A DNA stretch of 64,000 bases, from positions 128,001-192,000 of the forward strand of contig CAVWWD010000007.1 in NCBI GenBank assembly GCA_963758635.1. The letters run 5' to 3'. The notes beneath the pieces were generated by a model. The model had not been told where the DNA came from, did no database searches, and saw nothing but the letters and a program-made list of their open reading frames with translations. Source of the stretch: an uncultured Candidatus Rokubacteria bacterium (GTDB lineage: Bacteria; Methylomirabilota; Methylomirabilia; Rokubacteriales; CSP1-6). Below, piece after piece: positions 10,538 through 26,850 of this stretch; positions within the stretch are counted from its first letter, which is position 1; every line of letters begins with the position of its first letter. The translations under genes and the position numbers were made by a program.

Positions 10538-11875
10538 TCAGCTGGTGATCCGGTAGATGTGTACCGCGTTCGCGTCGGCGAATGAATCTGTGAACTGCCT
10601 GGTCGTGACCAGCCGAACACGGTCCTCGTATAACACCTCTACGGTCGATCCCGCCGCGACGGTGAAAATCGCCGTGGTAGCTCCCCCGGTGGACCCGGCG
10701 AACACATACCACGTCTCATCGGGCCCACGCTTTGCCATCACGCGCACGCCGCCAGAAACCGTTACATAGCGGTCGGCAAACGGTGAGTTGAGCACCGGCG
10801 CAAGTTCGGTGATCTGTCGGTTGACCTCGGCCACGGTGGCGCGAACGGAGGCGTAGCAGGAGTCGCGCAGGATGTGTTGCGTTTGGCAGGACCCGCCGAA
10901 GCTGTGGTTGAAGTAGATGATACCGCGGGCGCCGGCAATGATCGAGTGCCATACGGCGGACCGGATCTGGGCAGACTGGATCGTCGGAAAGTTGTGCTCG
11001 GTGGACGGGTGACCGGCCTCCACGAAAGCCCACACGGGCTGGCGCCGGCCGTCCACGGCGTCGAGTCGCCTCATCTTGTCGACCTGCCGCCCGTACTGTG
11101 CTCCAGACCGGCAGGCCGGGTCGGTGCCGGCCACGCATTCGTGGTTGTCGGTAAACCAGTACACGTCACTTGACACAAAGTCCTGAAATAGATTCACGAA
11201 CACCTGAGCTGCCTTGTCGGACTGCCAAATGATGACGCCCTTGCCATAGTTCGAATACCGGGGTTTTCCGTCGTTGGGTAGCGTACTATTGATCGTTCGC
11301 TGCACTGTGTAGCCGCATCGACCGCCACTGGTATTGGGCGGAATGCAATGATTCCAAGCCAGCACACCGTCCCAGGCATCCCAGCCAGGGCCAAAGACCA
11401 TGTCGGCTTCGTCTGAGACGACCCAGCCAGTGATGGCCTGGTGGGAGACACCCAGCCATTCATTTGACTGCGCGAGCGTGTACATTCCCGCCGCCGCGAC
11501 GAGGTCGAGATTCGAATTGCGCGTGATGACCACATAGGTGTTGAGCCCGGCCGCCTTGTCTAGGTCGACGTCGCGCTGCTCGACGACGCTTTCGAACCAC
11601 ACGCCGATCGGAAAGAAGGACGGGTTCGTGGGGAACGTATTCGGCCACCGCGAGAAGTAGCCTAGACCTCCGTCGATGTCGCGCAGCGTCACCCCGGGTG
11701 GCAATGGGCCTCCCGCATCACCAGAGCCGATCCGCGGGTCGCTTGGAGCGGCTGGGGGGCTCAACTGTTGTGCGACGGGACCGCTGCTGCCAAGACATTG
11801 AACGACGAACAGCCCAGCCAGTAGGCGGCAGCTAAACCGTCGCGACAACAGTCGGTGGAAGCGCGCTTTGATCAA
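10538..11875 (-). CDS. secreted putative glycoside hydrolase (clan GH-A-like TIM barrel plus C-terminal beta domain), paralog A
   Basis: Signal-peptide-like N-terminus; FFPIGVWFESV, SDEADM, NYGKG, PVWAFVE, GARGIIYFNHSFGG; TTG start inferred from GGAGG RBS (ORF open to 11890). Confidence 0.65.
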   Translation of the reverse strand: MIKARFHRLLSRRFSCRLLAGLFVVQCLGSSGPVAQQLSPPAAPSDPRIGSGDAGGPLPPGVTLRDIDGGLGYFSRWPNTFPTNPSFFPIGVWFESVVEQRDVDLDKAAGLNTYVVITRNSNLDLVAAAGMYTLAQSNEWLGVSHQAITGWVVSDEADMVFGPGWDAWDGVLAWNHCIPPNTSGGRCGYTVQRTINSTLPNDGKPRYSNYGKGVIIWQSDKAAQVFVNLFQDFVSSDVYWFTDNHECVAGTDPACRSGAQYGRQVDKMRRLDAVDGRRQPVWAFVEAGHPSTEHNFPTIQSAQIRSAVWHSIIAGARGIIYFNHSFGGSCQTQHILRDSCYASVRATVAEVNRQITELAPVLNSPFADRYVTVSGGVRVMAKRGPDETWYVFAGSTGGATTAIFTVAAGSTVEVLYEDRVRLVTTRQFTDSFADANAVHIYRITS

Positions 11876-12290
11876 CGTCCAGTCCTCCAATCGGGGTCGG
11901 GCGCACCTGCAGTTCGACCAAGGGACCTATCAGGAGCGACGTATCAGGAGGTCGTGCAGGAGCATCACTCGTGACGCAGAGCGGCCGCTCGATGCTTCAC
12001 CACCAACGACGCGAAGGCTGTAAACCTTGGTCTCTCATCGCGTCTGACACCCGCCGTGGGCGAGCCCCTCATATCTCGCATCGCCCGGATGCACCGCGCT
12101 GGTCGCCCACCCAGGGTCTCTCGCGCTGAATCGTGCCTCTCTCCGAAAATGAGCGCATCTGCAGCTCGCCAGCCTCGTTGCCGGTCTCGACGAAGTCGTC
12201 GAAATGAAGTCCTGTTACCTCCGCGCGATCTGACGACACTTCGACTACCCAACTGCGCTCGCTCTGGACGAAAGCTGGCTGCCGGGCCGC

Positions 12291-13823
12291 TTAGAGTGGT
12301 CGCTGGCTTGTGGTTGGTGTGGGAGAATCCGATAAATCTGTCGACGCCCCGTAGGTGGAAGCCGGAGCCTCTTCAGACGAGCGGATTGTCAAGCTCCGCA
12401 GAATGTCCAAGTACAACGATTTCTGGGCCATCACGAACAGGAGCACCCACGCGTAAACGATGAGAAAAACAACGCCGCCCAGCAGAAGCCTCGTGAGGGG
12501 CGACAGTGAAGCACCTAGGAAGAATATGGTCGCGAAGGCAGCTGACGCACCCGCGAACCCCGAGAGCAGCGGCCGGCCCACCACGCTCAGCACGTCCCGG
12601 TAAGAGACCACGGTGTCACGAAACACCCACAGCAGATGCGGGATGACCCATAGGGTCATCGCTGCTGAAAAACCGAGCGCGACGCCTTCCGGTCCGTACG
12701 GCAGGCCGAGCACGCAGCCGGTCATCACCAAGGGCGCGATGACGAGCGCAAGCTTCAAGCTCCGCCCAACCATTCCCAGCGAGACCAGCAGCCAACCTGT
12801 GGGGTTGATCAGGGCGAAGGCCAAGATGGTCGGCGTCAGGAAGCGGAAGACCGGGACCGCGTCCTTCCATTTTGGTCCAAGCATCACGAAAATCAATTCT
12901 TCGGCGAAGAGAGCGCAGACGACAGCTATGGGTATCGTGACGGCGAGGATAAGCGCGTAGGCCTTGAGGAAATAACTTCTGAACCTCTTGGGGTCATCCT
13001 GGACGCGCGACAGCACCGGAAAGGTCACAGCGCCCACCGCGAGATTGAGGTTCTCGGTCGGGAGATTGATCAGTTGGTACGCCCTCCCGTAGATTCCCGT
13101 GATCTCGGCCCCCCAGAAACGCCCCAACAGGACCTTATCAAGATTGTAGGCGACGTAGACAACCAAGCTGTTCAGCGTGACGATGCCTCCAAAGCGTATC
13201 ATCGAACCCATTCCGGTGCCGCGACGGGGCCGTCCAGGAATCCAGCCGGCAAAGAGCCAGGTGAAAAGTGTGGATACGAAAGGCACGGTGACAGACCACG
13301 CAACCAGAGCCCAATATCCGTGCCCTCGCAAAGCCATGACGACACTGACCACGCTGCTTGCGAGCAAGGACAGGATCTCGATGATCGCCAGAGCGGTGAA
13401 GCGCAATCGGCGCTGGAGGAGAGCCGAATGTTGCACGCTCGCGGCGCTGAAGAGGAATCCAAGCGCCAATACGACGGTGACCATGAAGAGTCGCGGCTCG
13501 TGATAGAAGGCGACCACAAGTGGAGCAACGGCAAGGGATACGAGACCAAGCATCGCGCCCACGAACACGTTAATCCAGAAGAGCGTTGACATCTGATCGT
13601 TGCTGATGGTGGCGCGCTGGACCGAGGCGGTAGACAGACCAAACTCCCGGAAGTAACTCAGGATGCCGGTGACCGCAGTGACCATGCCCACGAGGCCGAA
13701 GTCGGTAGGCTGGAGAACACGAGCCAGAACCATAAGCGATGCGATCCGCAAGAGAAAATTAGCCGCCTGGGCGCATAGTTTTGCCAGCCCACCGCGGATC
13801 GCCCGCTCCTTCAGGTCCCTCAT
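12291..13823 (-). CDS. polysaccharide flippase (Wzx/PST family)
   Basis: LARVLQPTDFGLVGM, G(I)YGRAYQL, many TM helices over 510 aa. Confidence 0.9.
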   Translation of the reverse strand: MRDLKERAIRGGLAKLCAQAANFLLRIASLMVLARVLQPTDFGLVGMVTAVTGILSYFREFGLSTASVQRATISNDQMSTLFWINVFVGAMLGLVSLAVAPLVVAFYHEPRLFMVTVVLALGFLFSAASVQHSALLQRRLRFTALAIIEILSLLASSVVSVVMALRGHGYWALVAWSVTVPFVSTLFTWLFAGWIPGRPRRGTGMGSMIRFGGIVTLNSLVVYVAYNLDKVLLGRFWGAEITGIYGRAYQLINLPTENLNLAVGAVTFPVLSRVQDDPKRFRSYFLKAYALILAVTIPIAVVCALFAEELIFVMLGPKWKDAVPVFRFLTPTILAFALINPTGWLLVSLGMVGRSLKLALVIAPLVMTGCVLGLPYGPEGVALGFSAAMTLWVIPHLLWVFRDTVVSYRDVLSVVGRPLLSGFAGASAAFATIFFLGASLSPLTRLLLGGVVFLIVYAWVLLFVMAQKSLYLDILRSLTIRSSEEAPASTYGASTDLSDSPTPTTSQRPL

Positions 13824-13974
13824 CGCCTTTTCACCTGCTCACCCGAGCAGTGCTCTGACGTAGCCTGCCATTCTTTGAACCCCACCCTCGCAGGGAGCCG
13901 GTTCCACAGCGCACGTCATCGGTGTTTGCGTGCGGCGAGGGGGCCGACCCGATTGAGCGGCAGACTATGCCGGC

Positions 13975-14326
13975 ATGGCCCTCGGCCGTGCGCAGGCGGC
14001 CGCGCCGATAGCCGTTGCGGTAGCCGTCGCCCGGCGCGGCCCCGGTCACGTAGTACTCCCAGCCCACGGCCTCACCTCGGCTTCCAGCCCTTCCTCCACG
14101 ATCTTGCGAGACCGCCAGCTTGAGCTGTGCAGCCGCGGGCGTCGCCGTCTCCCACGCCCGGGGTCAGCAGCTCATCGAGCTTCTGGCTCGTCCGCTCCGA
14201 TGCCGGGATTCTCGTGGGCACGCCGATGCCTCCTCTTGCCGTCGGCACCAACCGGCGACCTTGGGTTTCGCGACACCAGCAAGAGTGCATCCCCGTCTCG
14301 CTTCCCGCAACTATAGGATTTCACCC
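13975..14326 (-). pseudogene. IS256-family transposase N-terminal remnant with probable left end
   Basis: Manual translation from GTG 14221 (RBS GAGGAGG) gives, across frameshifts, ...RKIVEEGLEAEV..VG.EYY...GYRNGYRRGRLRTAEG, the mutator/IS256 N-terminal signature; truncated after TAEG. Confidence 0.75.
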
Positions 14327-14422
14327 AACAGCACCAGCGGATTAGAGCGATAATCTTTGGATCCGGTCGGAAGTGTGCTCGGGTCAACCGTTGTGTGAGT
14401 CAACCGTGGGGGAGGGAGCACC

Positions 14423-15071
14423 GTGGGACGGCGCCTACGTCATTTGATAACTGACCCGGCAGAGCAACGGTCCATCGGGACTACCCTGCGAAGGAAACGG
14501 TGGGAAGTGCTTCGCCGGCGCTTCCCCGATTTCGCGAAGATGCGTTGTGCTTGACCTCGGTGGCACGGTCGTGCACTGGGAGACCAGTCCAATCTGTCCC
14601 CGATCAGTGGTCGTGGTCAACCTGCTTCCCGAGTCAAGTGATATCGACTCGATCACGGCCGTGCAGGGCGACGCCTGTGACCCGCCCACCGTGGTGCGGG
14701 ACGCAGAGTTCGATCTGGTCTATTCCAATTCCCTGATCGAGCATGTGGGCGGCTACGCCCGCTGCCGTGACTTCGCGGCCGTGGTCCACGCCATGGCGTC
14801 ACACCACTGGGTGCAGACCCCGTATCGCTACTTCCCGATCGAACCGCACCGGCTCTTTCCAGGCCTGCAGTTCCTGCCGCAGCGCGCCCGCGCGTGGGCA
14901 ATCCGGCACTGGCCGCTGTCGCCTGCGTCGCCCAATCCGGAACAGGCTCTTCGGGATGTCCTCGAGGTCGAGCTGCTGTCGAAGACGGAAATGAAGTACT
15001 ATTTTCCTCGCTCCGAACTCCTTGAGGAACGAGTGCTGGGGTTGACGAAGTCGCTTATCGCGGTCGTCTGA
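14423..15071 (+). CDS. class I SAM-dependent methyltransferase-like protein (frameshift ~14545)
   Basis: RRRFPDFAKMR/VLDLGG, QGDACD, FDLVYSNSLIEHVGG, WVQTPYRYFPIEPH. Confidence 0.8.
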
Positions 15072-15209
15072 CGGAAGCGAAAGAGCGTCGGTCAACAGAA
15101 GGCCCGGACGCTGTGTACCAAGTCAACTTCTTCGAACCAAGACCATGAGCGAGATGACTGACGCTGCAGTCAGAGACTCGGTCCTGCCATCTTATGTGAC
15201 CAAGGGCCG

Positions 15210-15345
15210 GCGACACCTACACCGGGCTCGAAGAGGCGCGCCCGCACATCAACACTTTCATCGACCAGATCTACAATAGGCAACGCGTTCACTCGGCGCT
15301 GGCTATCTGTCGCCGCGTGAGTTCGCGGTCTCGCGGTCAACTGCC
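15210..15345 (+). pseudogene. IS3-family transposase C-terminal remnant
   Basis: Manual translation DTYTGLEEARPHINTFIDQIYNRQRVHSAL(g)YLSPREF matches the IS3 YN..R.HSALGYLSP..F terminus. Confidence 0.75.
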
Positions 15346-15472
15346 GTGATCGGCGCCGCTCATGGCCGCGGTTGCCGGCGTCGAGGATCACTCGTTTCTC
15401 TGGGCCATGTGAGGGGTAGGATTTCGTTGGACACCTCACTGGAGGGCATGATGGGCCTCCAAGGAGGGAGCC

Positions 15473-15850
15473 ATGAGCAAACGCAAGAAGGCGAGGCAGG
15501 TCCTGGCCGGGGCGGCGGCGGCCGCGGGCGCTGACAACGGACGGGAGCCGGGGCGCTTTTCGGCGCGGCGGAAGACGGAGACGATCCTGCGCCTGCTGCG
15601 GGGCGAGGCGCTCGACGGCGTGGCGCGCGAGCTCGGGGTGACGGCGGCGACGCTGGCGCAGTGGCGGGAGCAGTTCCTGGCGGGGGGGCAGAGCGCGCTG
15701 AAGAGCCGGCCGGCCGACGAGCGGGATGACGAGATCCAGCGGCTGCGGGCCAAGGTCGGCGAGATCACGATGAACAACGAGCTGCTCCTGGATCGGTGCC
15801 ATCGGCTGGAGGGCGGCCTCCCTTTGGCGTGGCGGAGGCGGAGCGAATGA
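15473..15850 (+). CDS. IS3-family transposase OrfA (HTH)
   Basis: RFSARRKTETILRLLRGE..ARELGVT..TLAQWREQF, coiled-coil LRAKVGEITM. Confidence 0.88.
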   Translation: MSKRKKARQVLAGAAAAAGADNGREPGRFSARRKTETILRLLRGEALDGVARELGVTAATLAQWREQFLAGGQSALKSRPADERDDEIQRLRAKVGEITMNNELLLDRCHRLEGGLPLAWRRRSE

Positions 15851-16734
15851 GCCAGACCCGCTCCCCCTCCACGCAGCAGGTCTACGGTCTGGCGCGGGTG
15901 TGCCGGGTGTGGGAGGTGGCGCGCTCGACGGTGTACGCCACGAAGGGCCGGGCGGCGGGGCCGGCGACGGCCCCGGGGCGGCGCGGCCCGAAGCCGCGGT
16001 GGAGCGACGAGACGTTGCTGAGCGAGATCCGGGCCGTGCTGGCGGCCGCGGTGTTTCTGGGGGAGGGGCATCGCAAGGTCTGGGCGCGGCTGCGGTGGCA
16101 GGGGGTGCGGACGTCGAAGGCCCGGGTGCTGCGGCTGATGCGGGAGGCGCACCTGCTGGCGCCCACGCGTGTGGGCCACGCCCACGGGCCGAAGGCGCAC
16201 GACGGGACGATCACCACGGAGCAGCCGGATCAGATGTGGGGGATGGATGCGACGAGTTGTCTGACCCGCGAGGGGACGGCCACAGTCTTCGTGGTGGTGG
16301 ATCACTGCGCGGCCGAGTGCATCGGGCTGCACGCGGCCAAGCCGGGGACCCGGTTCGAGGCGGTGGAGCCGCTGCGGCAGGGGATCCACGCCCTGTTCGG
16401 CGGCTACGAGGCCGGCATCGCGGGCGGGCTGCAGGCGCGGCACGATCACGGCAGCGAGTACATGAGCGACTACTTCCAAGATGAGCTGAAGTTCCTGGGC
16501 ATCGTGTCCAGCCCGGCGTTCGTGCGCGAGCCGGAAGGCAACGGCGTGGCGGAGCGGTTCATCCGCACGCTCAAGGAGCAGCTGCTCTGGGTCCGGAGCT
16601 TCGACACCGTGGAGGAGTTGCGCCACGCGCTCCTCGAGTTCAAGGCGCGGTACAACCGCGCGTGGCTCTGCGAACGCCACGGGCATCAGACGCCGGCGCA
16701 GGTGCGCGCCCAGCTCCTGCCGAGGGCCGCGTGA
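15847..16734 (+). CDS. IS3-family transposase OrfB (integrase core, DDE)
   Basis: ATGA overlap with orfA; GHRKVWARL, WGMD, HDHGSEY, PEGNGVAERFIRTLKEQ. Confidence 0.9.
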   Translation: MSQTRSPSTQQVYGLARVCRVWEVARSTVYATKGRAAGPATAPGRRGPKPRWSDETLLSEIRAVLAAAVFLGEGHRKVWARLRWQGVRTSKARVLRLMREAHLLAPTRVGHAHGPKAHDGTITTEQPDQMWGMDATSCLTREGTATVFVVVDHCAAECIGLHAAKPGTRFEAVEPLRQGIHALFGGYEAGIAGGLQARHDHGSEYMSDYFQDELKFLGIVSSPAFVREPEGNGVAERFIRTLKEQLLWVRSFDTVEELRHALLEFKARYNRAWLCERHGHQTPAQVRAQLLPRAA

Positions 16735-16878
16735 GGCTGCGGGGGCCCGCCCGACCGGAACGCGAGGGCCGTAGAGGCGCTACAAGGGGCCTTGGAGAGG
16801 AGGGCCGCTATCTCGGTATCCCCCCCACGGCGCCCGATCGAGTCAGTTACCACCACTCCACTCACAGAAGGGAACAAA

Positions 16879-18183
16879 ATGGGGAATCTACGATGGCTGG
16901 TCGTGGCGGCGGCACTCGCCCAAGCGGGTGCTCCACAGGTCGCACTCGCTCAAGCGGGCGCCCCAGCGGCGCCGACGAATCTCCGGATTGTCACCAGCGC
17001 GCCGCCGCCTGGAGTGACGTACCGCGCGCCGGATGGCGGGACGGATTACTTCGCGCGGTTCAGCGGCGGCACCATCCCGTCGTCGCCATCGTTCTTTCCG
17101 CTCGCCGTCTGGTTCGAGAGCGTCATCAGTCAGTCCGACATAGATTTGGACAAGGGGGCGGGCCTCAATACCTACGTGGTGCTGACCGTCAACTCGGATG
17201 CGGCGCTCGTGGCCTCGAACGGCATGTATTTTTTTGCGCATCAGGGGGCGTGGAAGGCGAAATTGCCGTTTGCGCGCGCGGGGTGGGAGTTGGACGACGA
17301 AGTGGACATGATTTACGGCGCGCCGAGTGGATTCACGCACCTGAGCACGATTCTGTCGTCGCTCCCTGCCGACAACAAACCGCGCTATGCCAACTATGGG
17401 AAGGGCGTCATGGCCTGGCTGGATGATGTCGACGCCACGCAGTTTGTCAACGCCTACACGCATGTCACCTCGGCCGACTTTTACTTTTGGACGGACCTCA
17501 ATATCTGTGAGGAGCAAGAAGGGGGATGGTTCTATAAACACTTGGGCATCCCCGGCTTCAGCCCCCCGCGCGCCCTCACCACGGCAGAGTGTCGCGCGGC
17601 CTGGAACTATGGATATGTGATCGACCGCCTGCGCCAACTGGATGGCATGGCCGGGGGTACGGGTCCGACCCAACGCCGGCCGATGTGGGGGTTTGTCGAG
17701 CTTGGGAACCCCTGGAGCCAAAATGTGCCGAAGATTACCCCCGCACAGGTGCGAGCAGCCGTGTGGCACATGCTGATCGCGGAAGCGCGCGGCATCATCT
17801 ACTTCAACCATACCTTCGGGGGAGCCTGCATTTCGCAGCATATCTTGCGCGATCCGTGTTATGCGACGATCCGGGCCGAGGTGACCACGATCAATCAGCG
17901 GATCGTGGCGTTGGCCCCCGTGCTTAATGCGGCCTTTGCTGATGGCTATGTCACGACCTCCAGCGGGGTCCGGGTGATGACCAAGTACGGGCCGGATGGC
18001 GCCTTCTATGTCTTCGCCGGATCCAAGCAGCATGCGTCACAGACCGTCACGTTTACGGTGGCGGCGGGCGCGACCGTGGAGGTGCTCTTTGAGAATCGAA
18101 CGCTCACGATTACCGGTGGGAAGTTCAGTGACACGTTTGCTGACGGAAACGCCATACACATCTACCGGATCACCGGCGGGTGA
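16879..18183 (+). CDS. secreted putative glycoside hydrolase, paralog B
   Basis: Signal peptide LRWLVVAAALAQA; collinear with 10538..11875 (FFPLAVWFESV, DEVDM, NYGKG, PMWGFVE, ARGIIYFNHTFGG, HIYRIT). Confidence 0.7.
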   Translation: MGNLRWLVVAAALAQAGAPQVALAQAGAPAAPTNLRIVTSAPPPGVTYRAPDGGTDYFARFSGGTIPSSPSFFPLAVWFESVISQSDIDLDKGAGLNTYVVLTVNSDAALVASNGMYFFAHQGAWKAKLPFARAGWELDDEVDMIYGAPSGFTHLSTILSSLPADNKPRYANYGKGVMAWLDDVDATQFVNAYTHVTSADFYFWTDLNICEEQEGGWFYKHLGIPGFSPPRALTTAECRAAWNYGYVIDRLRQLDGMAGGTGPTQRRPMWGFVELGNPWSQNVPKITPAQVRAAVWHMLIAEARGIIYFNHTFGGACISQHILRDPCYATIRAEVTTINQRIVALAPVLNAAFADGYVTTSSGVRVMTKYGPDGAFYVFAGSKQHASQTVTFTVAAGATVEVLFENRTLTITGGKFSDTFADGNAIHIYRITGG

Positions 18184-18338
18184 TGCAATCACGCTACGAA
18201 CGCCGGGCAGCCTTCAGCTCGGTTGCCATCGAAGCCACGTCGCAGATGTCGTCCCCGATCCCCGCAGCGTTTGAGTTCTTGTAAGCATGTCGACGGGAAC
18301 GCCGGTTCACCTTTACTCCGTGGATAAAGAGTCCAGCT

Positions 18339-19304
18339 GTGGCGCCTACTGAGATGACAACGACCTGCGTCTCCAGCGGCCGTGTCTTCACCGACGACCA
18401 TGAGGTCGTCGACTGCGCCGCTATCATCGTGACCTACAACAGCGCGGCAGACATCGGCGGCCTGCTGGACTCACTCCCTGCTGCCGCGGCGGGCCTGCGG
18501 ATTCGGGCCGTGGTGGTCGACAACGACTCTTCTGACGACATCGCGTCCATAGTCGCGCGTTTCCCCGGCGTGCTCTTCGTGCCCGCGGGCGGAAACCTGG
18601 GCTACGCTGGCGGGCTCAACCTCGGCCGCCGATACTGCCGGCAGAGCCGCTCCGTCCTCGTGCTCAATCCCGATCTGGTGCTCGCACCCGGCAGCATCCG
18701 AGCGCTCCTTGCCGCACTGGCGCGACACGGCACCGGCGCCGCAGTGCCACGCATGCTCAACGAGGACGGCCATCTCTTCCCCTCTCTTCGCCGGGAGCCA
18801 TCCCTTACCCGCGCACTTGGCGATGGGCTGTTCGGCAAGGCGTGGCCGAACCGGCCGGCGTGGCTATCCGAGATGGTCTGGACGCGTGAAGCCTACGAGT
18901 CCGAAGGCCCGGTCCAGTGGGCGACTGGCGCCGCGCTGCTCGTGTCGGCCGCGGCCGACGCCGCCGTCGGGGCCTGGGACGATGCGCGGTTCTTCCTCTA
19001 CTCGGAGGAGACCGACTACTGCCGACGACTGCGAGAGGGCGGGCACAGTATCCACTACGTGCCGGAGGCGACCGTTGTGCACCGCGGCGGTGGCTCCGGC
19101 ATCAGCGTCGATCTAGCGGCGTTGAGTGCGGTCAACCGGATCCGCTACTTCCGCAAGTACCACGGTCGGCTGGCCAGTGCGGTGTTTCGTGCCGCGGTGA
19201 TCCTAACCGAGCTCCTGCGGGTGCACCGTCCCGGCAATCGCCGGGCCCTGTGGGTGCTGCTGTCGGCGCATCGTTGGTCACGACTGCCGGGGCAGCGTGT
19301 GTAG
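18339..19304 (+). CDS. glycosyltransferase family 2 (WbbL/rhamnosyltransferase-like)
   Basis: IIVTYNS, VVVDNDSSD, GNLGYAGG, LNPD, FFLYSEETD. Confidence 0.9.
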   Translation: MAPTEMTTTCVSSGRVFTDDHEVVDCAAIIVTYNSAADIGGLLDSLPAAAAGLRIRAVVVDNDSSDDIASIVARFPGVLFVPAGGNLGYAGGLNLGRRYCRQSRSVLVLNPDLVLAPGSIRALLAALARHGTGAAVPRMLNEDGHLFPSLRREPSLTRALGDGLFGKAWPNRPAWLSEMVWTREAYESEGPVQWATGAALLVSAAADAAVGAWDDARFFLYSEETDYCRRLREGGHSIHYVPEATVVHRGGGSGISVDLAALSAVNRIRYFRKYHGRLASAVFRAAVILTELLRVHRPGNRRALWVLLSAHRWSRLPGQRV

Positions 19305-19739
19305 TCCCGGAAATTGTCCGCCAAGCCTATGGTTTATGGCCACTTCACGGTGGTAGTGTCATCGTGCTGTCCGGCTTTTCGCTCGCTCTCTCAAACTGGC
19401 GCTGGCGGTGCCGGCGACGCTGGTGGTCGGGCGGCTATTCGCGGCCGTATTCGAGCTGCGGTTCACAAGGCACAGAACGCGGGCAGCTCTTCGGGCGGCG
19501 GCTCGTGTCTGACTCGCCGGACGGCGAGATTGCGACCATGAGTTGCGGAACGGAGCTCCTTACTCGGAACCGCGTTGACCCAGGACCGGCCGAGGGTGGC
19601 ACGGGCCGCCGCGACTTCCCGGCTTGGCAGGTTGAGGTAGCAGCGGGCGTCTGCAGTGCCGACTCTACGGAGCGTGCCGGCAACCTCCACAACTTGTAGC
19701 GGCCCGAACGTCGCGCCCGTCAGACTCGTCGCCCGCGCG

Positions 19740-20035
19740 TCACCCGGTGATTCCTGTTAGATGTTCGCGTTCGCGTCGACGAACGAATCCGTGAACTGAC
19801 GGTTTGTGAGGGTTCGAGTCCGGCCCTCGTACAACACCTCCACGCTCGATCCCGCCGCGACGGTGAAGGTCGCCGTGGTGGCGCCTCCCGTCCATCCAGC
19901 GAACACGTAACAGGCTCCGTCGGGACCGCGCTTGGCGATCGCCCGCCCGCCGCGCGAGACCGTCCATACCCGTCGGCGAACGGCGAATTGAGCACCGTCG
20001 CGAGCTGGGTGATCTGCGGGTTGAACCCGCCCAGA
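19740..20035 (-). pseudogene. truncated third copy (C-terminal domain) of the paralog A/B gene
   Basis: Manual translation NPQITQLATVLNSPFADGY...AKRGPDGACYVFAG.TGGATTATFTVAAGSSVEVLYE...RQFTDSFVDAN...ITG*, matching the paralog A C-terminus. Confidence 0.85.
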
Positions 20036-20038
20036 CGG

Positions 20039-21046
20039 TCACCGCTGCTGGAAGATGCGTATGTAGTCGACCTCCAGCTGATGGACCAGGGTCTGACTCG
20101 ACAAGACCGACCCCCAATCGCGTTCCCATTGGTTGTCGATCATCATGTGCAAGATGAGCTGCATGGGACCGCTCTCGATGGTGCTGGAATTGCCATTGAA
20201 CTGCCCGCACTTGACTCCGTCGATGTACCAGGCGATGTGCGTGGGCTGCCAGTCCAGGCCGAATCTGACGAAATCCGTTGAGTAATTTCGTACCGGGCAC
20301 GCTCCGTTGTTGTGCAAGCCATTGTTGGGAGTGTAGGAGCTAGCGCGACCGTTGTAGTGATAGTGCATGAAGATCGTGTCAGGAAAGCCGCCGAGTATCT
20401 CGACGATATCGATTTCCGTAGCGTAGTTGAAGCTCGGATTGGTCGGGAGCATCCAGAAGGCCGTGAAGAATCCCGGCGTCCCCGGGAACTTCATCCGCGC
20501 TTCGATGTAGCCGTACGTGAACGGAAACAGGTAAGGGGAGCCGTTGTCGGCTCGGGGCCGGGCCGTCGATACCAGCCCTGCCTTGTAGGTGCACACGCCT
20601 TGGTAGCACGCATTGTTGGGATAAGGCGGCGAGAGAGGCTCAGCCACGAGCTTGGCCGTGCCGTTGCTTATGCGCACCTGCGATGGCAGATAGCGTTCTT
20701 TGCCCGAGTTGAATGATGCCGTGCAGTCGCCGAAGTTCCAGTCGAAGCACGGTGTGAGCTTCGTGGTGTCGAGCGTGGTGCCATTGAATTCTTCGAAGTA
20801 TGTGACGGCCCATTGCTTGCCACTGGCGACCGGTGCTGGGGGCAACGGGAAGCAGTTCGGAGGAGCGCCGATCTGGCCCGTGGGACAGGCGCCGCCGCTG
20901 ACTGTGAGGTTCGTCGGGGCGTTCGGCACGGTCAACTGCGCGAGCGCGGTGCCGCCGCCGACGCACAGAACTGTGAACAGCCCGATCAACAGATGGGAGA
21001 GACGCCAGCGGGGAAACAGTTGGTGGCGGCGAATTCGTAAAAGCAT
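20039..21046 (-). CDS. secreted glycoside hydrolase family 16
   Basis: GGAGG RBS, signal peptide, FEEFNG..LD, FTYGYIEARMK, AFWM, catalytic EIDIVE, WYIDG, VDYIRIFQ. Confidence 0.9.
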   Translation of the reverse strand: MLLRIRRHQLFPRWRLSHLLIGLFTVLCVGGGTALAQLTVPNAPTNLTVSGGACPTGQIGAPPNCFPLPPAPVASGKQWAVTYFEEFNGTTLDTTKLTPCFDWNFGDCTASFNSGKERYLPSQVRISNGTAKLVAEPLSPPYPNNACYQGVCTYKAGLVSTARPRADNGSPYLFPFTYGYIEARMKFPGTPGFFTAFWMLPTNPSFNYATEIDIVEILGGFPDTIFMHYHYNGRASSYTPNNGLHNNGACPVRNYSTDFVRFGLDWQPTHIAWYIDGVKCGQFNGNSSTIESGPMQLILHMMIDNQWERDWGSVLSSQTLVHQLEVDYIRIFQQR

Positions 21047-21247
21047 TGAACCTCCGCAGTCACGTGTTGGCGATGTGCAACCCGGTCGGCTGCGCAACGT
21101 GGCGCACGACCCCGGGCAAGCTGGACTGGCTGCGTGCGCTTACCCTCGCTTCCCACCTCTTTTCCTGACTTCTCGTCGATCGATCGGGCGGGCTGGGCGG
21201 TCCAGCCGTTGGCCCGCGCGCGTGGCCTCTGGACACCGACGAGACAC

Positions 21248-22393
21248 CTACCTCTGTGTGGTCGCGGCGACGATCCGAGAATAGCTGCCGAGGTTTCCGG
21301 CAGCGTCGGTCGCCCGGACGCGGTAGCGATAGCGGGTGTTCGGCGAGAGCCCCGTGTTGCTGTAACTCGTGCCGGACGGCGCCGCGATCTGGACGAAGTT
21401 CGAGCATTTCCGGCCCTGGCAGCGTTCCACGCGATAGGCGGTCACGCCCACGGCGTCGGTGGAGGCGGTCCAGTTCAGGTCGATCCGGCTGCTGCTCACC
21501 GCGGTGGCCACGAGCCCGCCGACCTTCGTCGGCGGTGTGGTGTCGCCGGGGCTCGTGGCCGCAAAAGCGGCCGTGACGGTCACGGGGGTATTACCCGCGA
21601 TCGTGCACGGCGCGGTGCCCGAGCAGCCGGCGGTCCAGCCGCTGAAGGTCGAGCCAACCGACGGAGTTGCCGTGAGGGTGACAATCGTACCGGCGGCGAA
21701 GCTCTCGAAGCAGTCGCTGCCGCAAGAGATTCCGGCGGGACTGCTGGTCACCGTCCCGGATCCGGTGCCCATCTTGGTCACGGTGACAACAGGGCCAGTG
21801 GGAGGGGGAGCCGCAAAAGCGGCCGTGACGGTCACGGGGGTATTACCCGCGATCGTGCACGGCGCGGTGCCCGAGCAGCCGGCGGTCCAGCCGCTGAAGG
21901 TCGAGCCAGCCGACGGAGTTGCCGTGAGGGTGACAGTCGTACCGGCGGCGAAGCTCTCGAAGCAGTCGCTGCCGCAAGAGATTCCGGCGGGACTGCTGGT
22001 CACCGTCCCGGATCCGGTGCCCATCCTGGTCACAGTGACAAGAGGGCCAGTGGGGCCGGCCGAGGAGCCACAGGCTTCGTTCGAGTAAGCCGAATCGCCC
22101 GCGGAGTTGAAAGCCCGGACCCGGTAGCAATACGTCGTGCCCGCGTCCACCGTGTCCTGATGCGTCGTGACCCCGGCACCGGTCGTCCCGATCTGCGAGT
22201 AGGCTCCGGCGCTCACCAGCCTGCGCTCTATCTTGAAGCCGGCGGTGCCAGCGGAGTTGTCATCCCAGGTCAGCGTGAGCTGATCTGCACTGGCCGTGGC
22301 GACGACGAGGACGGTGACGGCGAAAAGCACCGCCACTCCGAGAAGCTTCCGGGCAGCCGGCTTCGGGGCGCACGCAAACACATACGATGGCAC
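21248..22393 (-). CDS. secreted protein: FN3 + two InlB B-repeat-like domains + FN3
   Basis: Signal peptide; LTW.D...YCYRVRAFN..GDSAYSN; two G.GSGTVTSSPAGISCG..C...VTLTATP..GS.FSGW..GC repeats; DTTPPT...IDLNW...YRYRVRATDAAGN. Confidence 0.88.
   Translation of the reverse strand: MPSYVFACAPKPAARKLLGVAVLFAVTVLVVATASADQLTLTWDDNSAGTAGFKIERRLVSAGAYSQIGTTGAGVTTHQDTVDAGTTYCYRVRAFNSAGDSAYSNEACGSSAGPTGPLVTVTRMGTGSGTVTSSPAGISCGSDCFESFAAGTTVTLTATPSAGSTFSGWTAGCSGTAPCTIAGNTPVTVTAAFAAPPPTGPVVTVTKMGTGSGTVTSSPAGISCGSDCFESFAAGTIVTLTATPSVGSTFSGWTAGCSGTAPCTIAGNTPVTVTAAFAATSPGDTTPPTKVGGLVATAVSSSRIDLNWTASTDAVGVTAYRVERCQGRKCSNFVQIAAPSGTSYSNTGLSPNTRYRYRVRATDAAGNLGSYSRIVAATTQR
21558..22053. repeat. near-identical tandem duplication, 252-bp period (84 aa)
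   Basis: GCAAAAGCGGCCGTGACGGTCACGGGGGTATTACC begins at both 21561 and 21813, with few mismatches along the unit. Confidence 0.95.
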
Positions 22394-22455
22394 AGTCGCC
22401 TCCCTGAGTCATTGGGGAACAACTTACCGCCCGCGGCCGCGGGCCACTCGAGGAG

Positions 22456-22470
22456 GCAACGAACGTGCCA
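22456..22470 (-). promoter_or_regulatory. sigma54 (-24/-12) promoter upstream of the FN3 gene
   Basis: Minus strand TGGCACGTTCGTTGC = TGGCAC-N5-TTGC with exact GG-N10-GC spacing, ~60 nt upstream of the start codon. Confidence 0.8.
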
Positions 22471-22662: not shown

Positions 22663-23577
22663 TCAGTTCTGCATGGGTGATGCCTCGGGCGTTCCACGCC
22701 CTCGCCCGATCCGGGAGAGCCGTCCAGTCTTCCAGCCGGAACGGACAGAAGAGTACGCGTAGTCGTAGTAGCGGGAGGTGGCCGTCGGTCGCTCGCTGTT
22801 GTTGAAGAGCAAACCCACGACCTTGTCCGGCTCGACCATGTTCAGTGCGTCGGCGAGGAGCCGTCGCGACGTCTGGTGGCACCTCACGACGATCAGGTAG
22901 CCATCCACCCAGCGCCCGAGGATGCGCGAGTCCAGCACGGGCACGAGCGGTGGGGTGTCGAGCACGACGTAGTCGAAGCGGCTCCGGGCCTCGGCGAGGA
23001 TCTCGCCCATCCGCGGCGCCTGGAAGAGCTCATAGGAGTTCGGCGACGGGGAGCCGGCCGCGATCACGGCCAGATTGAACGGCGGCCGCGCGCGAACGGC
23101 GTCGTCGAATGAGAGGCTCGGGTCGAGCACGAGGTCCGCCAGCGCTGGCCCGTCCGGCTCAACGAGCCCGAGTCGCCTCGCGATCGCCGGGCGCCGCAGG
23201 TCCGCGTCGATCAGCAGGATGCGCACGCCCGGAGCCTGCGCCAACGCCCCGGCGAGGTTGATCGCCGTGGTCGTCTTTCCATCGCCGACCGTCGGGCTCG
23301 TGACCGCCACCGCCGAGAGCCCGGATCGCTTGTGTGCCTGCTCCACGGCGTGCCGCAGCGCCCGGTACTGTTCGGCCTCGACCGCGTTCGGGATGAGCAG
23401 GCTCACCAGGTGGTCATCGATCCCGACGGGGGAGGTCGACGCCTCGCGCCCACTCGTCGGGATAGGGGGCGATGGAGTGGGCGGGGAAGCCGGCGAGACG
23501 GCGGAGGGCCGAGGAGACAGCGCGCGGAGTGCGCGGTCGCGTTCGGCTTGCTCGAGGGCCTTGGAGAACTTGCTCAT
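22663..23577 (-). CDS. CpsD/CapB family tyrosine-protein kinase
   Basis: AEQYRALR, VTSPTVGDGKTT, LLIDADLRRP, VVLDTPP, Tyr-rich tail YYDYAY. Confidence 0.92.
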   Translation of the reverse strand: MSKFSKALEQAERDRALRALSPRPSAVSPASPPTPSPPIPTSGREASTSPVGIDDHLVSLLIPNAVEAEQYRALRHAVEQAHKRSGLSAVAVTSPTVGDGKTTTAINLAGALAQAPGVRILLIDADLRRPAIARRLGLVEPDGPALADLVLDPSLSFDDAVRARPPFNLAVIAAGSPSPNSYELFQAPRMGEILAEARSRFDYVVLDTPPLVPVLDSRILGRWVDGYLIVVRCHQTSRRLLADALNMVEPDKVVGLLFNNSERPTATSRYYDYAYSSVRSGWKTGRLSRIGRGRGTPEASPMQN

Positions 23578-24578
23578 CGCAGCATCGCTCCTCGCAGGAT
23601 TCGGGTCCACTCGGTCGCGCCCGGCGCACCGAGGTGTTCCAGCAAACCCGGATTGAACATCTCGGCCGCGCCGGCCGCGACGACCAAGCCCGCCAGAACG
23701 AGGGCGATGCTCGCGGCGAGGTGGGGGATCCGCTGGCGCAAGAGCGCGTGGATGCCCTGGAGTCGCCGCGGACGGTCCTCGAGATACGCGATCGCCTCCT
23801 CCACGATGTCGCGGTCGATCCGTCGTCGCTGGTCGGCGTAGCCGATCACCAGGCAGTGATCGCACACGATGTTGATCAAGCGGGGTATCCCGCCCGTGTA
23901 GCCGGCGATGCGCGCGAGTGCCCGTTCGGTGAAGAGTCCGAGATCGGCGGCGCGGGCGATGCGGAGGCGCGCGCGGATGTAGTCGCGGGTCTCGTTGCCC
24001 GTCAGCGGAGGGATCTCGCAGCGCAGGGCGATCCGCTGCTTGAGCTGCCGCAGCTCCGGCAACTCCAGCTTGGAGCGGATCTCGGTTTGTCCCACGAGCA
24101 CGATCTGGAGCAGCTTCTCCGAGGCGGTCTCGAAGTTGGACAGCAGGCGGATCTGTTCGAGGGTCTGCGGCGTGAGGTTTTGCGCCTCGTCCACTATGAG
24201 GACGGTCTGGAGGCCCGCGCGGCCGCGCTCGGCCAGGAAGCTGTTGAAGGCGAACAGGCGCTGGGCCGGTGAGTGGTCGGCCTTCAAGATCCCGAAACTC
24301 TCCAGAGCGTACTCGAAGATCTGGTCGAAGGGCAGCATGGTGTTGAATACGTATGCCACGGCGGCCGTGCTGTCCAGCCGCTTGAGCAGCGACTGCACGA
24401 GCGTCGTCTTGCCCATTCCGACCTCGCCCGACAGCAGCATAAAGCCCTTGCGCTCCTCCAGGCCGTACTTGAGCTGTGCGAGCGCCTCGCGGTGTCCGGG
24501 AGCCATGTAGAGGAAGTGCGGGTCCGGGGTCGTCTGGAACGGCTTCTCGGCGAGGCCATAGAAGGTGAGGTCCATCAT
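23574..24578 (-). CDS. ExeA/GspA-like AAA ATPase (polysaccharide-locus associated)
   Basis: FYGLAEKPF.TPDP.F, GEVGMGKTT, IVDEAQNL, LVGQTE, GGIPRLIN; C-terminal TM. Confidence 0.9.
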   Translation of the reverse strand: MMDLTFYGLAEKPFQTTPDPHFLYMAPGHREALAQLKYGLEERKGFMLLSGEVGMGKTTLVQSLLKRLDSTAAVAYVFNTMLPFDQIFEYALESFGILKADHSPAQRLFAFNSFLAERGRAGLQTVLIVDEAQNLTPQTLEQIRLLSNFETASEKLLQIVLVGQTEIRSKLELPELRQLKQRIALRCEIPPLTGNETRDYIRARLRIARAADLGLFTERALARIAGYTGGIPRLINIVCDHCLVIGYADQRRRIDRDIVEEAIAYLEDRPRRLQGIHALLRQRIPHLAASIALVLAGLVVAAGAAEMFNPGLLEHLGAPGATEWTRILRGAMLR

Positions 24579-24651
24579 TGAGCCTCCACGCTGCGCCGCA
24601 GCCGTCTCCAGGCAGGACCGGTGCGGTCAGCAGGCGCCGGGCACGCCGTCG

Positions 24652-26055
<1,404 letters not shown>

Positions 26056-26850
26056 GCCCTCGTCTCCTGTGACAACGACGCTTCCGAAAAGGACGCCTTC
26101 GCAGCTCCCGCCTCCCTGGTGAGGCACGAGGCGATGCTCGGCGATCCAGGACCGGTCCATCTGCTGGCCTGTGCGCGGTTCCTTTCAAGGCAAGGCTTCC
26201 CGGGTGCGCAACACGCGCCGGGAATGGTCGTGGCCGCGACGCCGCGCGCCCCCCGTTTCCTCCGTAAGTCCCCGTCCCGCGCGGAGTAGACCTCTCGTCC
26301 GGGTAAGGGGCTACTTCGTCTTGACTCGCAGCGTGGGTATCAGGAGGCACGAACCGTACCAGATTACCCCTACAAGCTTGGTAACCGCGGATCCTCGATC
26401 TTCAGGTTCTTTGCAGAATAGACGTGAGCTCCGTGCAAGGTCGCGCGACAGTTGCATATTGTGAGTCGGCCGTTGCAGAACGACTGAAAGGGAAATCCCC
26501 TTGTTGCGGCGGACTACGCGTTGCGATGGGCAAGCGACACTATTTGTCGGGTTTTAACACGGGACAGGGCCTCAGAAGATGACCGCGCCGTCGACTCGTG
26601 TTAAAGACCCATAGAATTCACCGACTTACATAAAGGATCACGGTCGTCCGCAGTGGTTCGGTCCTTGCAACCGCCCACGGACCGAGATGTCGAATCCACT
26701 GTCGAAACCGACCCGCTCCGACATCCCGATTGCAGCTTTCGACTGTGAAAGGCTTTGCTAGATATTGCTCCGATTGACTGACGCCTAAGGCCGCGGGTAG
26801 GACTCGGCCCTCTGAATCCTGCCCTCCACCGTTGATCCGGAGGTGTTGCT

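Follow-up and report, generated by a model that had tools for sequence, protein, structure and literature searches.

Donor-strand complementation is known from bacterial pili. In the chaperone-usher Pap and Fim systems and in type V pili an Ig-like domain that lacks a strand is completed by the terminal peptide of another chain, and the strand missing in the Pap and Fim pilins is G. Secreted enzymes may also be assembled in cellulosomes, where a dockerin on each enzyme binds a cohesin on a scaffold that is anchored to the cell and has more than one binding module. The Pam pili of CPR bacteria follow the pilus principle with an Ig-like sandwich minus one strand that is completed by the terminal peptide of another chain (PMC13278184). 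A natural split fibronectin type III (FN3) fold is described for the Fn3nc (SAS1) module of HCF-1 and HCF-2, where a half repeat and one-and-a-half repeats join two polypeptides; these proteins are eukaryotic and nuclear, and OGT cleaves a single precursor to give the two halves (PMC6582346). We found no paper on split-FN3 docking in bacteria in our searches, which covered the main texts of openly accessible papers.

This study concerns a stretch of 64,000 nucleotides (the window) from an uncultured Candidatus Rokubacteria bacterium, for which the first-pass annotation had proposed that three secreted enzymes carry the FN3 strand A that a neighbouring protein lacks. The neighbour is a secreted scaffold of 381 aa (21248..22393, minus strand) with Pfam matches to fn3 and two InlB B-repeat domains. 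Its signal peptide is followed by a strand-A-less FN3, the candidate socket, with strands B-G from DQLTLTW (22055..22285, minus strand), by two divergent B-repeat domains that would form a stalk (21554..22045, minus strand), and by a seven-stranded FN3 (21251..21544, minus strand) that is complete with its own strand A, PTKVGGLVA, as had been claimed. Each chain holds one A-less domain; no membrane or cell anchor was seen in the scaffold, which ends in ...ATTQR, and no spare strand in it reaches 15 bits with the tag profile introduced below, which agrees with the earlier statement that it has no spare PxAPxNL strand. In the fold search the C-terminal domain matched 4n68 (Z 15.3, rmsd 1.6, 94 residues aligned); all results of fold searches with the scaffold model were complete FN3 domains aligned mainly to that C-terminal domain, so these searches bear on it and not on the first domain.

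The first domain matches PF00041 with 22.6 bits (E 5.8e-4), below the 25-bit cut-off, but it has the LxW of strand B and the Tyr corner of strand F, phmmer matches it to titin FN3 and FN3con, and its atlas neighbours are fn3. No strand A of its own (PxAPxxL motif) precedes strand B in the scaffold or in its family, and a conserved signal-peptidase site lies directly before strand B, which bears out the earlier reading that the domain starts at DQLTLTWDD. We note that the cleavage sites of the scaffold and of the tagged enzymes are probable sites, assigned by visual inspection and with the help of family alignments. In an AlphaFold single-sequence model of the scaffold the first domain has six strands (E2-8 to E63-74) and the last has seven, and AlphaFold folds the first domain by itself with a pLDDT of 55-85. 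The expected six-stranded domain was thereby seen, but as the modelled chain began at D37 the model could not show a strand A in it.

The missing strand extends well beyond this one protein. A search of the window's class found a signal peptide followed by a B-first FN3 in 17 of 29 non-self loci read, and an internal A-less domain in 3 more; a small residue stands at -1 in 48 and at -3 in 45 of 49 N-terminal A-less cases. A Cys pair, which in the scaffold sits in strands F and G (TYCY...NEAC), was found in 50/50 parsed A-less domains as compared to 4/31 parsed complete domains, after five rows had been reassigned by eye. These counts support the view that the absence of strand A is conserved throughout the family and is accompanied by an extra Cys pair, which in the socket probably forms an F-G disulfide and could make the six-stranded domain stable alone. 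A socket-profile search of 1.84 billion representatives was dominated by tandem complete FN3 proteins and was uninformative. The genome holds a second A-less protein 29 kb before the window, with an FN3 match above the PF00041 cut-off, and both sockets and all three tags of the genome fall within 52 kb.

Translation confirmed the positions and strands of the three motifs reported for the enzymes. Those of paralog B (PAAPTNLRIV, consensus form, 16963..16992, plus strand) and of a GH16 enzyme (PNAPTNLTV, 20900..20926, minus strand) are orphan copies of FN3 strand A, while that of paralog A (PAAPSDPRI, 11729..11755, minus strand) is degenerate. Each tag stands 3-5 residues downstream of a likely Ala-X-Ala signal cleavage site before Gln, and Pfam gives no fn3 match in any of the three enzymes, as expected from the claim that no FN3 lies behind the motif. 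A tag profile built from 60 acidobacterial tags was run against the six-frame translation of the 6.17-Mb genome; B (30.3) and GH16 (22.9) took ranks 1 and 3 of the 12 matches of at least 15 bits, and the other 10 were apparently non-coding frames or internal matches. The B and GH16 tags thus appear to exceed chance expectation. The tag of paralog A scored only 10.2: its codons AGC GAC CCG stand where the orthologs P0008 and P0009 have Ser-Asn-Leu, and the Leu-to-Pro exchange (next to Asn-to-Asp) is probably strand-breaking, with the tag damaged, weakened or dead. Docking of all three enzymes, as first proposed, is therefore doubtful. Column identity is 0.75 in the tag compared to 0.38 in the signal and 0.39 in the linker behind the tag, in an alignment of sequences selected for having the tag.

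Of the enzymes described earlier as secreted glycosidases, the GH16 (20039..21046, minus strand, likely start ATG 21046) is firm, with 70.1 bits to PF00722, an ExDxxE catalytic motif that is intact as EIDIVE (20399-20416), and E228, D230 and E233 invariant in 38 sequences, whereas paralogs A and B are probable glycosidases. Paralog B (16879..18183, plus strand) is secreted and gives weak GH42-like and apiosidase-like signals; paralog A (10538..11875, minus strand, likely start TTG 11875) is 49% identical to it, and a frameshifted 3' relic of a paralog-A-like gene (19757..20038, minus strand) lies directly behind the GH16 stop codon. The A/B family has invariant D140, D143 and E274, apiosidase-like profile matches below cut-off in 28 of 90 members, an atlas assignment to the GH42 N-terminal cluster (0.95, with a 13% share), weak matches in 7 of 60 relatives, and no PDB relative that we found; it was not found at E 1e-40 in 251 genomes of a Vicinamibacterales-level order, a set without a positive control.

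The tag is unevenly spread over these families. It is present in 34 of the 35 nearest GH16 homologs and in 37 among the 120 nearest listed; distant homologs have dockerin (PF00404, in 3 of the 120 listed), complete FN3 or lipoprotein signals in its place, which supports the idea that the tag occupies a slot for attachment modules. Among A/B homologs 116 of 120 listed have no tag (some sequences are truncated), and in the 56 metagenome A/B loci, many on short contigs, all were untagged as far as N-termini were present and none had an A-less FN3 of the window's subtype. There are two types of signal-plus-tag cassette, each present on both enzyme folds, and the signal peptide of paralog B is of the Vicinamibacterales GH16 type, which supports a swapping of cassettes between the two folds and the tag as a portable module. 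The signal peptides of A and the GH16 are related, and these two enzymes have one cassette in common by descent; three independent tags were therefore rejected for two origins. Contigs of equal size hold a scaffold homolog and a GH16 homolog twice (2743 and 143459 bases), which suggests that the two may be a kept pair.

We favour the reading that the tag is an isolated FN3 strand A and acts as a plug. Once exported and freed of its signal peptide, the scaffold would begin with a domain of strands B-G, held folded by the F-G disulfide, with a groove open beside strand B. The tag of B or the GH16 would fill this groove, with Pro, Leu and Ile/Val toward the core, and complete a seven-stranded sandwich. 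One enzyme would thereby be tethered per scaffold, on the B-repeat stalk and close to the exopolysaccharide that the cluster around the locus produces. Another socket is possibly offered by the second A-less protein, and paralog A would probably dock weakly or not at all. By FN3 topology an enzyme with an N-terminal tag would sit where the socket joins the stalk, held by a linker of 5-10 residues, and we counted this against docking. The sequences, family traits, cassette swapping and co-occurrence counts were observed here; the cleavage sites, the disulfide, the binding, the strand register and the attachment target of the scaffold are inferred. Donor-strand docking in general we consider rather probable; docking onto the scaffold of the window is a closer call, which we put slightly on the doubtful side.

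The alternative that survives best, although we think it unlikely, is an imported relic. The tag might be a real donor strand in a source lineage, the Vicinamibacterales, probably for a PRxVEFDPSPDH-type domain of BACON-repeat fibre subunits, while the enzymes and the scaffold became neighbours here only by landing in one exopolysaccharide island. For instance, the GH16 is 79-89% identical to its nearest homologs, which are mostly acidobacterial where named, and a tagged GH16 occurs in only 1 of 251 genomes of the window's class, so the tags may be imports. The GC content of the locus is 0.60-0.66 as compared to about 0.71 for the contigs, and an IS-type element, for which no terminal repeats were found, adjoins paralog B. 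The decay of the paralog A tag, the two origins rather than three, and the absence of that second domain type from the window's genome all fit this alternative. The B tag, however, shows no defect, and relatives of the GH16 in other assemblies (P0196, P0319 and P0320) have retained the tag, apparently beside scaffold homologs. Genomes of the window's own class also have C-terminal tags near sockets (G006, G168, G082 and G050); in G006, which has the closest socket homolog in the class, the tag is on the same 22.7-kb contig.

Alternatively, tag and socket might be separate devices, a reading we regard as improbable: the six-stranded FN3 would be stable through its disulfide or through self-pairing via the exposed strand B, and the tag would bind something else, such as a secretion or surface receptor or any beta-sheet edge. 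Besides the link of the Cys pair to strand A loss and the folding of the domain alone in AlphaFold, with the patterns used, many sockets lack a tag in their vicinity or anywhere in the genome. Against the docking itself, none of 16 tagged GH16 loci has a socket at a distance of up to 10 kb, and tight linkage of tag and socket is not supported; of 20 acidobacterial socket regions only 3 have a tag close by, and of 36 regions of the window's class chosen for a socket only 2 hold one (control 0/20). In five socket-rich genomes of that class the pattern counts did not exceed the control, and 30 loci read contained no real tag. A first class-wide DNA pattern matched 54 of 251 genomes, close to its reversed control; the 30 loci read from it included two real tags, both C-terminal, and a doubtful N-terminal one. 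Raw in-frame co-occurrence in the class (5/17 vs 30/183) was not significant (p 0.19). In 200 Acidobacteriota genomes tag and domain overlapped in 5 as compared to 6.7 expected, in a test that was blunt because profile A4 at E 1e-10 mixed A-less with complete FN3 (17 of 30 domain loci A-less, 13 complete; 1 of 30 pattern loci a real tag).

At the level of the order the counts point the other way, although kin are not independent in these or in any other counts given here. The tag pattern gave 102 matches in 10 Vicinamibacterales-type genomes against 35 in reversed controls, and 60 loci read comprised 26 C-terminal orphan strands and 5 N-terminal GH16 tags. A signal-adjacent A-less FN3 was found in 13 of 16 tagged-GH16 genomes (10 of 13 after removing three seed genomes), compared to 0 of 30 loci read from 35 untagged genomes. 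An in-frame C-terminal tag went with the second A-less domain type in 9/13 vs 20/106 Vicinamibacterales genomes, with 2/8 in the out-of-frame control. The scan of related genomes suggested earlier has thus given genome-level co-occurrence in Vicinamibacterales and none that is significant in the window's own class or across Acidobacteriota. Four of the five proteins with an N-terminal domain of the second type that were read to their end finish in a tag, and an A-less domain at one end with a tag at the other recurs in three domain subtypes (L411, L547, L548 and L550; L519, L498 and L511; P0175). This recurrence, the co-occurrence within the order with its out-of-frame control, and the strand-A pattern kept in the tag at either terminus speak against separate devices. 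We note that the strongest co-occurrence is with this second type, whose FN3 identity is unproven: its Pfam fn3 match is weak (E 0.015, positions 9-82), HHalign gives 0.8% against the window's socket family, and L411 has no fn3 match.

It is highly unlikely that the end of the signal peptide (LVVATASA) is retained as strand A: LVVATASADQLTLTW does align residue by residue with LVATAVSSSRIDLNW from the C-terminal FN3, which is complete, and the Pfam match reaches into this region (profile 4-80), but the upstream segment of the family is variable and hydrophobic, ends in Ala-X-Ala, often has polar c-regions (WHQEASA) and has no conserved strand A, and in the second socket the profile match does not begin before position 11-16. 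A partnerless Pro-rich spacer is equally far-fetched, for although most homologs of both enzyme families have no tag, and catalysis therefore has no need of it, Asn, Leu/Val/Phe, Arg and Ile are conserved despite varying codons, and in 26 proteins the motif forms the C-terminus, with just two or three residues left to the stop codon, a useless place for a spacer.

Returning to strand docking, we speculate, with considerable doubt, that a general chaperone-free plug-and-socket system exists in soil and groundwater bacteria. A portable FN3 strand A at either end of any secreted protein, moving with the signal peptide, would dock into an A-less FN3; socket-plus-plug proteins would polymerise into fibres that tagged enzymes cap, and plugs would fit across socket subfamilies and phyla, so that acquired enzymes such as the GH16 and B are displayed at once on a native scaffold. 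If the tag binds, bacteria would have, in addition to cohesin-dockerin and covalent anchors, a third means of keeping secreted enzymes on the surface, and one used by abundant uncultured lineages. It would also explain why PxxPTNLRI is so common as an unannotated motif at protein tails and heads, and why many secreted proteins start with a truncated FN3. The nine-residue tag, usable at either terminus, and its 75-residue partner would then be a small natural protein-coupling pair, for which the Leu-to-Pro variant of paralog A offers a built-in negative control for binding.

The likeness to a cellulosome lies in a short module that secreted enzymes from different families have in common, proposed here to bind a non-catalytic scaffold, and in the dockerin that takes the tag slot in 3 GH16 homologs among the 120 listed. 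The term "cellulosome-like assembly" used at first was nevertheless overstated and is rejected, because there is one socket per scaffold and no anchor was seen; there is also no cohesin or dockerin Pfam match in the four proteins (A, B, GH16 and scaffold), and the docking would complete a fold instead of forming a domain-domain interface. In pili as here we see a sandwich minus one strand, in the scaffold by way of its probable cleavage site, and a second chain whose terminal peptide has the pattern of the strand that is missing (B and GH16, degenerate in A), with binding in trans a proposal in our case. Pili use the pilin Ig fold and their assembly is driven by chaperones or proteases, while here the acceptor is an FN3 minus strand A and the donors are enzymes whose folds are unrelated. 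In a scan of 15 ORFs around the locus no match to chaperone, usher or pilin Pfam families was found. As compared to HCF, where the donor is a half repeat, the putative donor here is a single strand, separately encoded and portable.

On sequence evidence, the tag, an orphan FN3 strand A of PxxPTNLRI type, and the incomplete FN3 domain of the scaffold are both real and conserved, and docking of the one into the other is plausible and would be simple to put to experiment. The first-pass annotation correctly placed the tags of the secreted probable glycosidases paralog A (11729-11755; likely start 11875) and paralog B (16963-16992; start 16879; 49% identity to paralog A) and of the GH16 enzyme (20900-20926; start 21046; PF00722, 70 bits). 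The scaffold (21248..22393, minus strand) has the domain order FN3, two InlB B-repeats, FN3. An exopolysaccharide cluster (flippase, WecG, GT2, CpsD-like kinase) surrounds the four proteins, and the GC of the locus is below that of the genome. Paralog B is oriented opposite to paralog A and the GH16; directly 5' of it lies an IS-type transposase of two ORFs (HTH_21, rve; 15473-16734, +), at which no terminal repeats were found. The scaffold's neighbours (22663-26160, -; 26851-30942, +) are a CpsD-like tyrosine kinase, an ExeA-like AAA ATPase, a sigma-54 response regulator and a sigma-54/AAA/TPR fusion.

The family of the scaffold's first domain is present in 54 of the 251 genomes of the window's class, and 18 of 30 class loci read, this one included, have a signal peptide followed by FN3 from strand B, the others being three internal A-less domains and nine complete FN3. 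Among 71 database homologs, the N-terminal A-less cases carry a small residue at -1 in 48/49 and at -3 in 45/49. The A-less form is marked by paired cysteines, one in strand F and one in strand G, found in 50/50 parsed A-less versus 4/31 parsed complete domains (five rows reclassified by eye, six unparsed rows excluded). Since the B-first start, cleavage-site residues and Cys pair run through the family, the absence of strand A is a selected family trait and not the product of a mis-called gene start. A structural model of the mature scaffold, its chain starting at D37 and so leaving no residues for a strand A there, has six strands in the first domain and seven in the last.

This genome encodes one further A-less domain, in the same cluster but 29 kb ahead of the window. 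Cys-paired, it opens a secreted protein (C7:98855-100600; L014:2850 onward) that presumably continues with some three repeats of Calx-beta-like type and ends in a carbohydrate-binding-like domain; the gene is broken by frameshifts, and the protein's end carries no tag. Also outside the window, a heavily frameshifted gene of that cluster (C7:105700-110870; L014) encodes a large secreted protein with what we take to be a pair of LamG-like domains, repeats of an Ig-like unit and an end resembling galactose oxidase, followed by NRPS-like genes within the cluster. In many A-less-FN3 scaffolds (P0143, P0149, P0150, P0159, L019, L024) the chain ends with a short stretch rich in Lys and Arg (e.g., ...FKRQGRRK), which may serve as a signal for surface binding or sorting.

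Signal peptide plus PxxPTNLRI begins 34 of the 35 nearest GH16 homologs among the matches listed and 37 of the 120 listed; in more distant homologs the slot holds a dockerin (3 of 120 listed), a complete FN3 or lipoprotein signals. Column identity in an alignment of tagged GH16s only was 0.75 for the tag, 0.38 for the signal, 0.39 for the linker behind the tag and 0.87 for the catalytic domain, and codons differ at fixed residues in the 11 loci, out of 16, that could be parsed. In the A/B family, the tag occurs only on the three nearest non-self homologs among the matches listed. A profile built from 60 acidobacterial tags gave 12 matches in the whole genome, paralog B ranking first and the GH16 third; paralog A scored only 10.2. 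Its tag differs from those of its orthologs by Asn-to-Asp and Leu-to-Pro changes, and the Pro, at a core-facing strand position, should disrupt the putative docking; alternatively, the changes may be sequencing errors in this assembly, where frameshifts are numerous. A third kind of N-terminal carrier, L270 (genome G253), has a signal peptide, PTAPTHLRL and then complete FN3-like domains.

Two signal-peptide types occur, each on both enzyme folds: one on paralog A, its ortholog P0008 and the window's GH16 (z 7-8), the other on paralog B, P0006 and Vicinamibacterales GH16s (z 7-12). The 5' end of the window's GH16 resembles paralog A, and directly behind it lies what is left of a third A/B paralog, the disrupted 3' end of a gene like that of paralog A (19757-20038, -). 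The shared signal types and A-like ends indicate that the three tags have two origins and that the tag travels with the signal peptide; the GH16 domain has evidently taken the place of the catalytic part in an A copy, signal and tag being retained. Among 79 loci, the tagged GH16s that have a name come from Acidobacteriota/Vicinamibacterales in 15 cases and from a bin with the label Gammaproteobacteria in one, and the window's GH16 was probably imported, as just 1 of 251 class genomes has the tagged gene. That the tag here is an imported relic seems to us unlikely, if the best of the alternatives.

Co-occurrence of tags and A-less domains in related genomes, a check proposed in the first-pass annotation, was found at order level for a second A-less type, the FN3-like PRxVEFDPSPDH domain of Vicinamibacterales; raw overlap in class and phylum was not significant. 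In ten tagged-GH16 genomes the tag pattern gave 102 matches versus 35 in controls, and of the 60 read, 26 were orphan strands at the C-termini of unrelated secreted proteins and five were GH16 tags, the remainder being noise or unclear. A signal-adjacent A-less FN3 lies elsewhere in 13/16 tagged-GH16 genomes (10/13 without three profile-seed genomes), and in the comparison set (19 genomes matched of 35 searched, from 63 other loci) all 30 loci read were complete FN3, a comparison in which phylum is a confounder, as is the tuning of the profile to Acidobacteria. All three remaining tagged-GH16 genomes carry the second A-less type. Four of five proteins opening with it finish in a tag, with BACON repeats in between, and three others have BACON repeats and tag only, the arrangements that fibre subunits joined head to tail, and their caps, would be expected to show. 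L411, L547, L548 and L550, secreted proteins of Vicinamibacterales-type genomes in which BACON repeats lie between this unannotated N-terminal domain and an orphan strand at the C-terminus, are candidate self-polymerising fibre subunits; the domain also terminates other large proteins (L400-L407). Among 121 genomes of the order-level set, 15 have an in-frame C-terminal tag, 11 of them with the second A-less type (31/121 overall); without two genomes seen before, the counts are 9/13 tagged versus 20/106 (p 0.0004, overstated by kinship), and 2/8 for genomes with out-of-frame matches only. A W-type A-less domain shares a chain with a terminal strand in L519, L498, L511 and P0175. Four genomes of the window's class (G006, G168, G082 and G050) have verified C-terminal tags close to sockets, the A-less candidate acceptors, and such tags occur also in G076, G074, G232 and G024; in two cases, scaffold and GH16 homologs lie on equally long contigs, which we take to be one and the same. 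An in-frame C-terminal PAAPTGFAISFK-type ending is conserved in four genomes of the family (G014:C330, G158:C194, G239:C51, G248:C62).

That tag and A-less domain are separate devices is, in our judgement, slightly less likely again than a relic. No socket lies within 10 kb of a tagged GH16 (0/16 loci), and tags were found near just 3/20 acidobacterial socket regions and in just 2/36 class regions picked for a socket (control 0/20), four of 40 regions having been left out as picked after a tag was seen. In five socket-rich class genomes, pattern counts overall did not exceed control, and 30 loci read held no real tag. Raw in-frame co-occurrence in 200 class genomes (5/17 versus 30/183) and overlap across Acidobacteriota (5 observed, 6.7 expected) were not significant, in tests whose sharpness suffered from noise and from divergent tags that fell outside the patterns. 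The second A-less type, the best-supported partner, was not found in the window's genome, and its membership of FN3 is putative: it matches Pfam fn3 at E 0.015 and, by HHalign, the scaffold's socket family at 0.8%. We give very little credence to an uncleaved signal peptide serving as strand A, or to the tag being a spacer.

Strand donation is the most likely reading of tag and A-less domain: the tag would fill out the socket's FN3 sandwich, the predicted disulfide would hold the empty domain folded, and each scaffold would tether one enzyme. We lean towards the tag acting as a donor strand somewhere, and propose docking onto this scaffold more tentatively. By FN3 topology, an N-terminally tagged enzyme exits the socket at the pole of the stalk, a tighter arrangement than for C-terminal tags. 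No anchor is visible in the scaffold.

In a search of openly accessible papers, none was found to describe split-FN3 docking in bacteria. The "cellulosome-like" assembly first suggested is abandoned, cohesin and dockerin being absent and the site single. An Ig-like viral domain is reported to have its absent strand A substituted in cis (PMC12051499), and in simulations of 10FNIII strand A is reported to detach first (PMC2585069). The putative mechanism would work like donor-strand complementation in pili (PMC13278184), and the putative tag-socket pair resembles the split Fn3 of HCF-1 (PMC6582346; via 10.64898/2025.12.28.696747).
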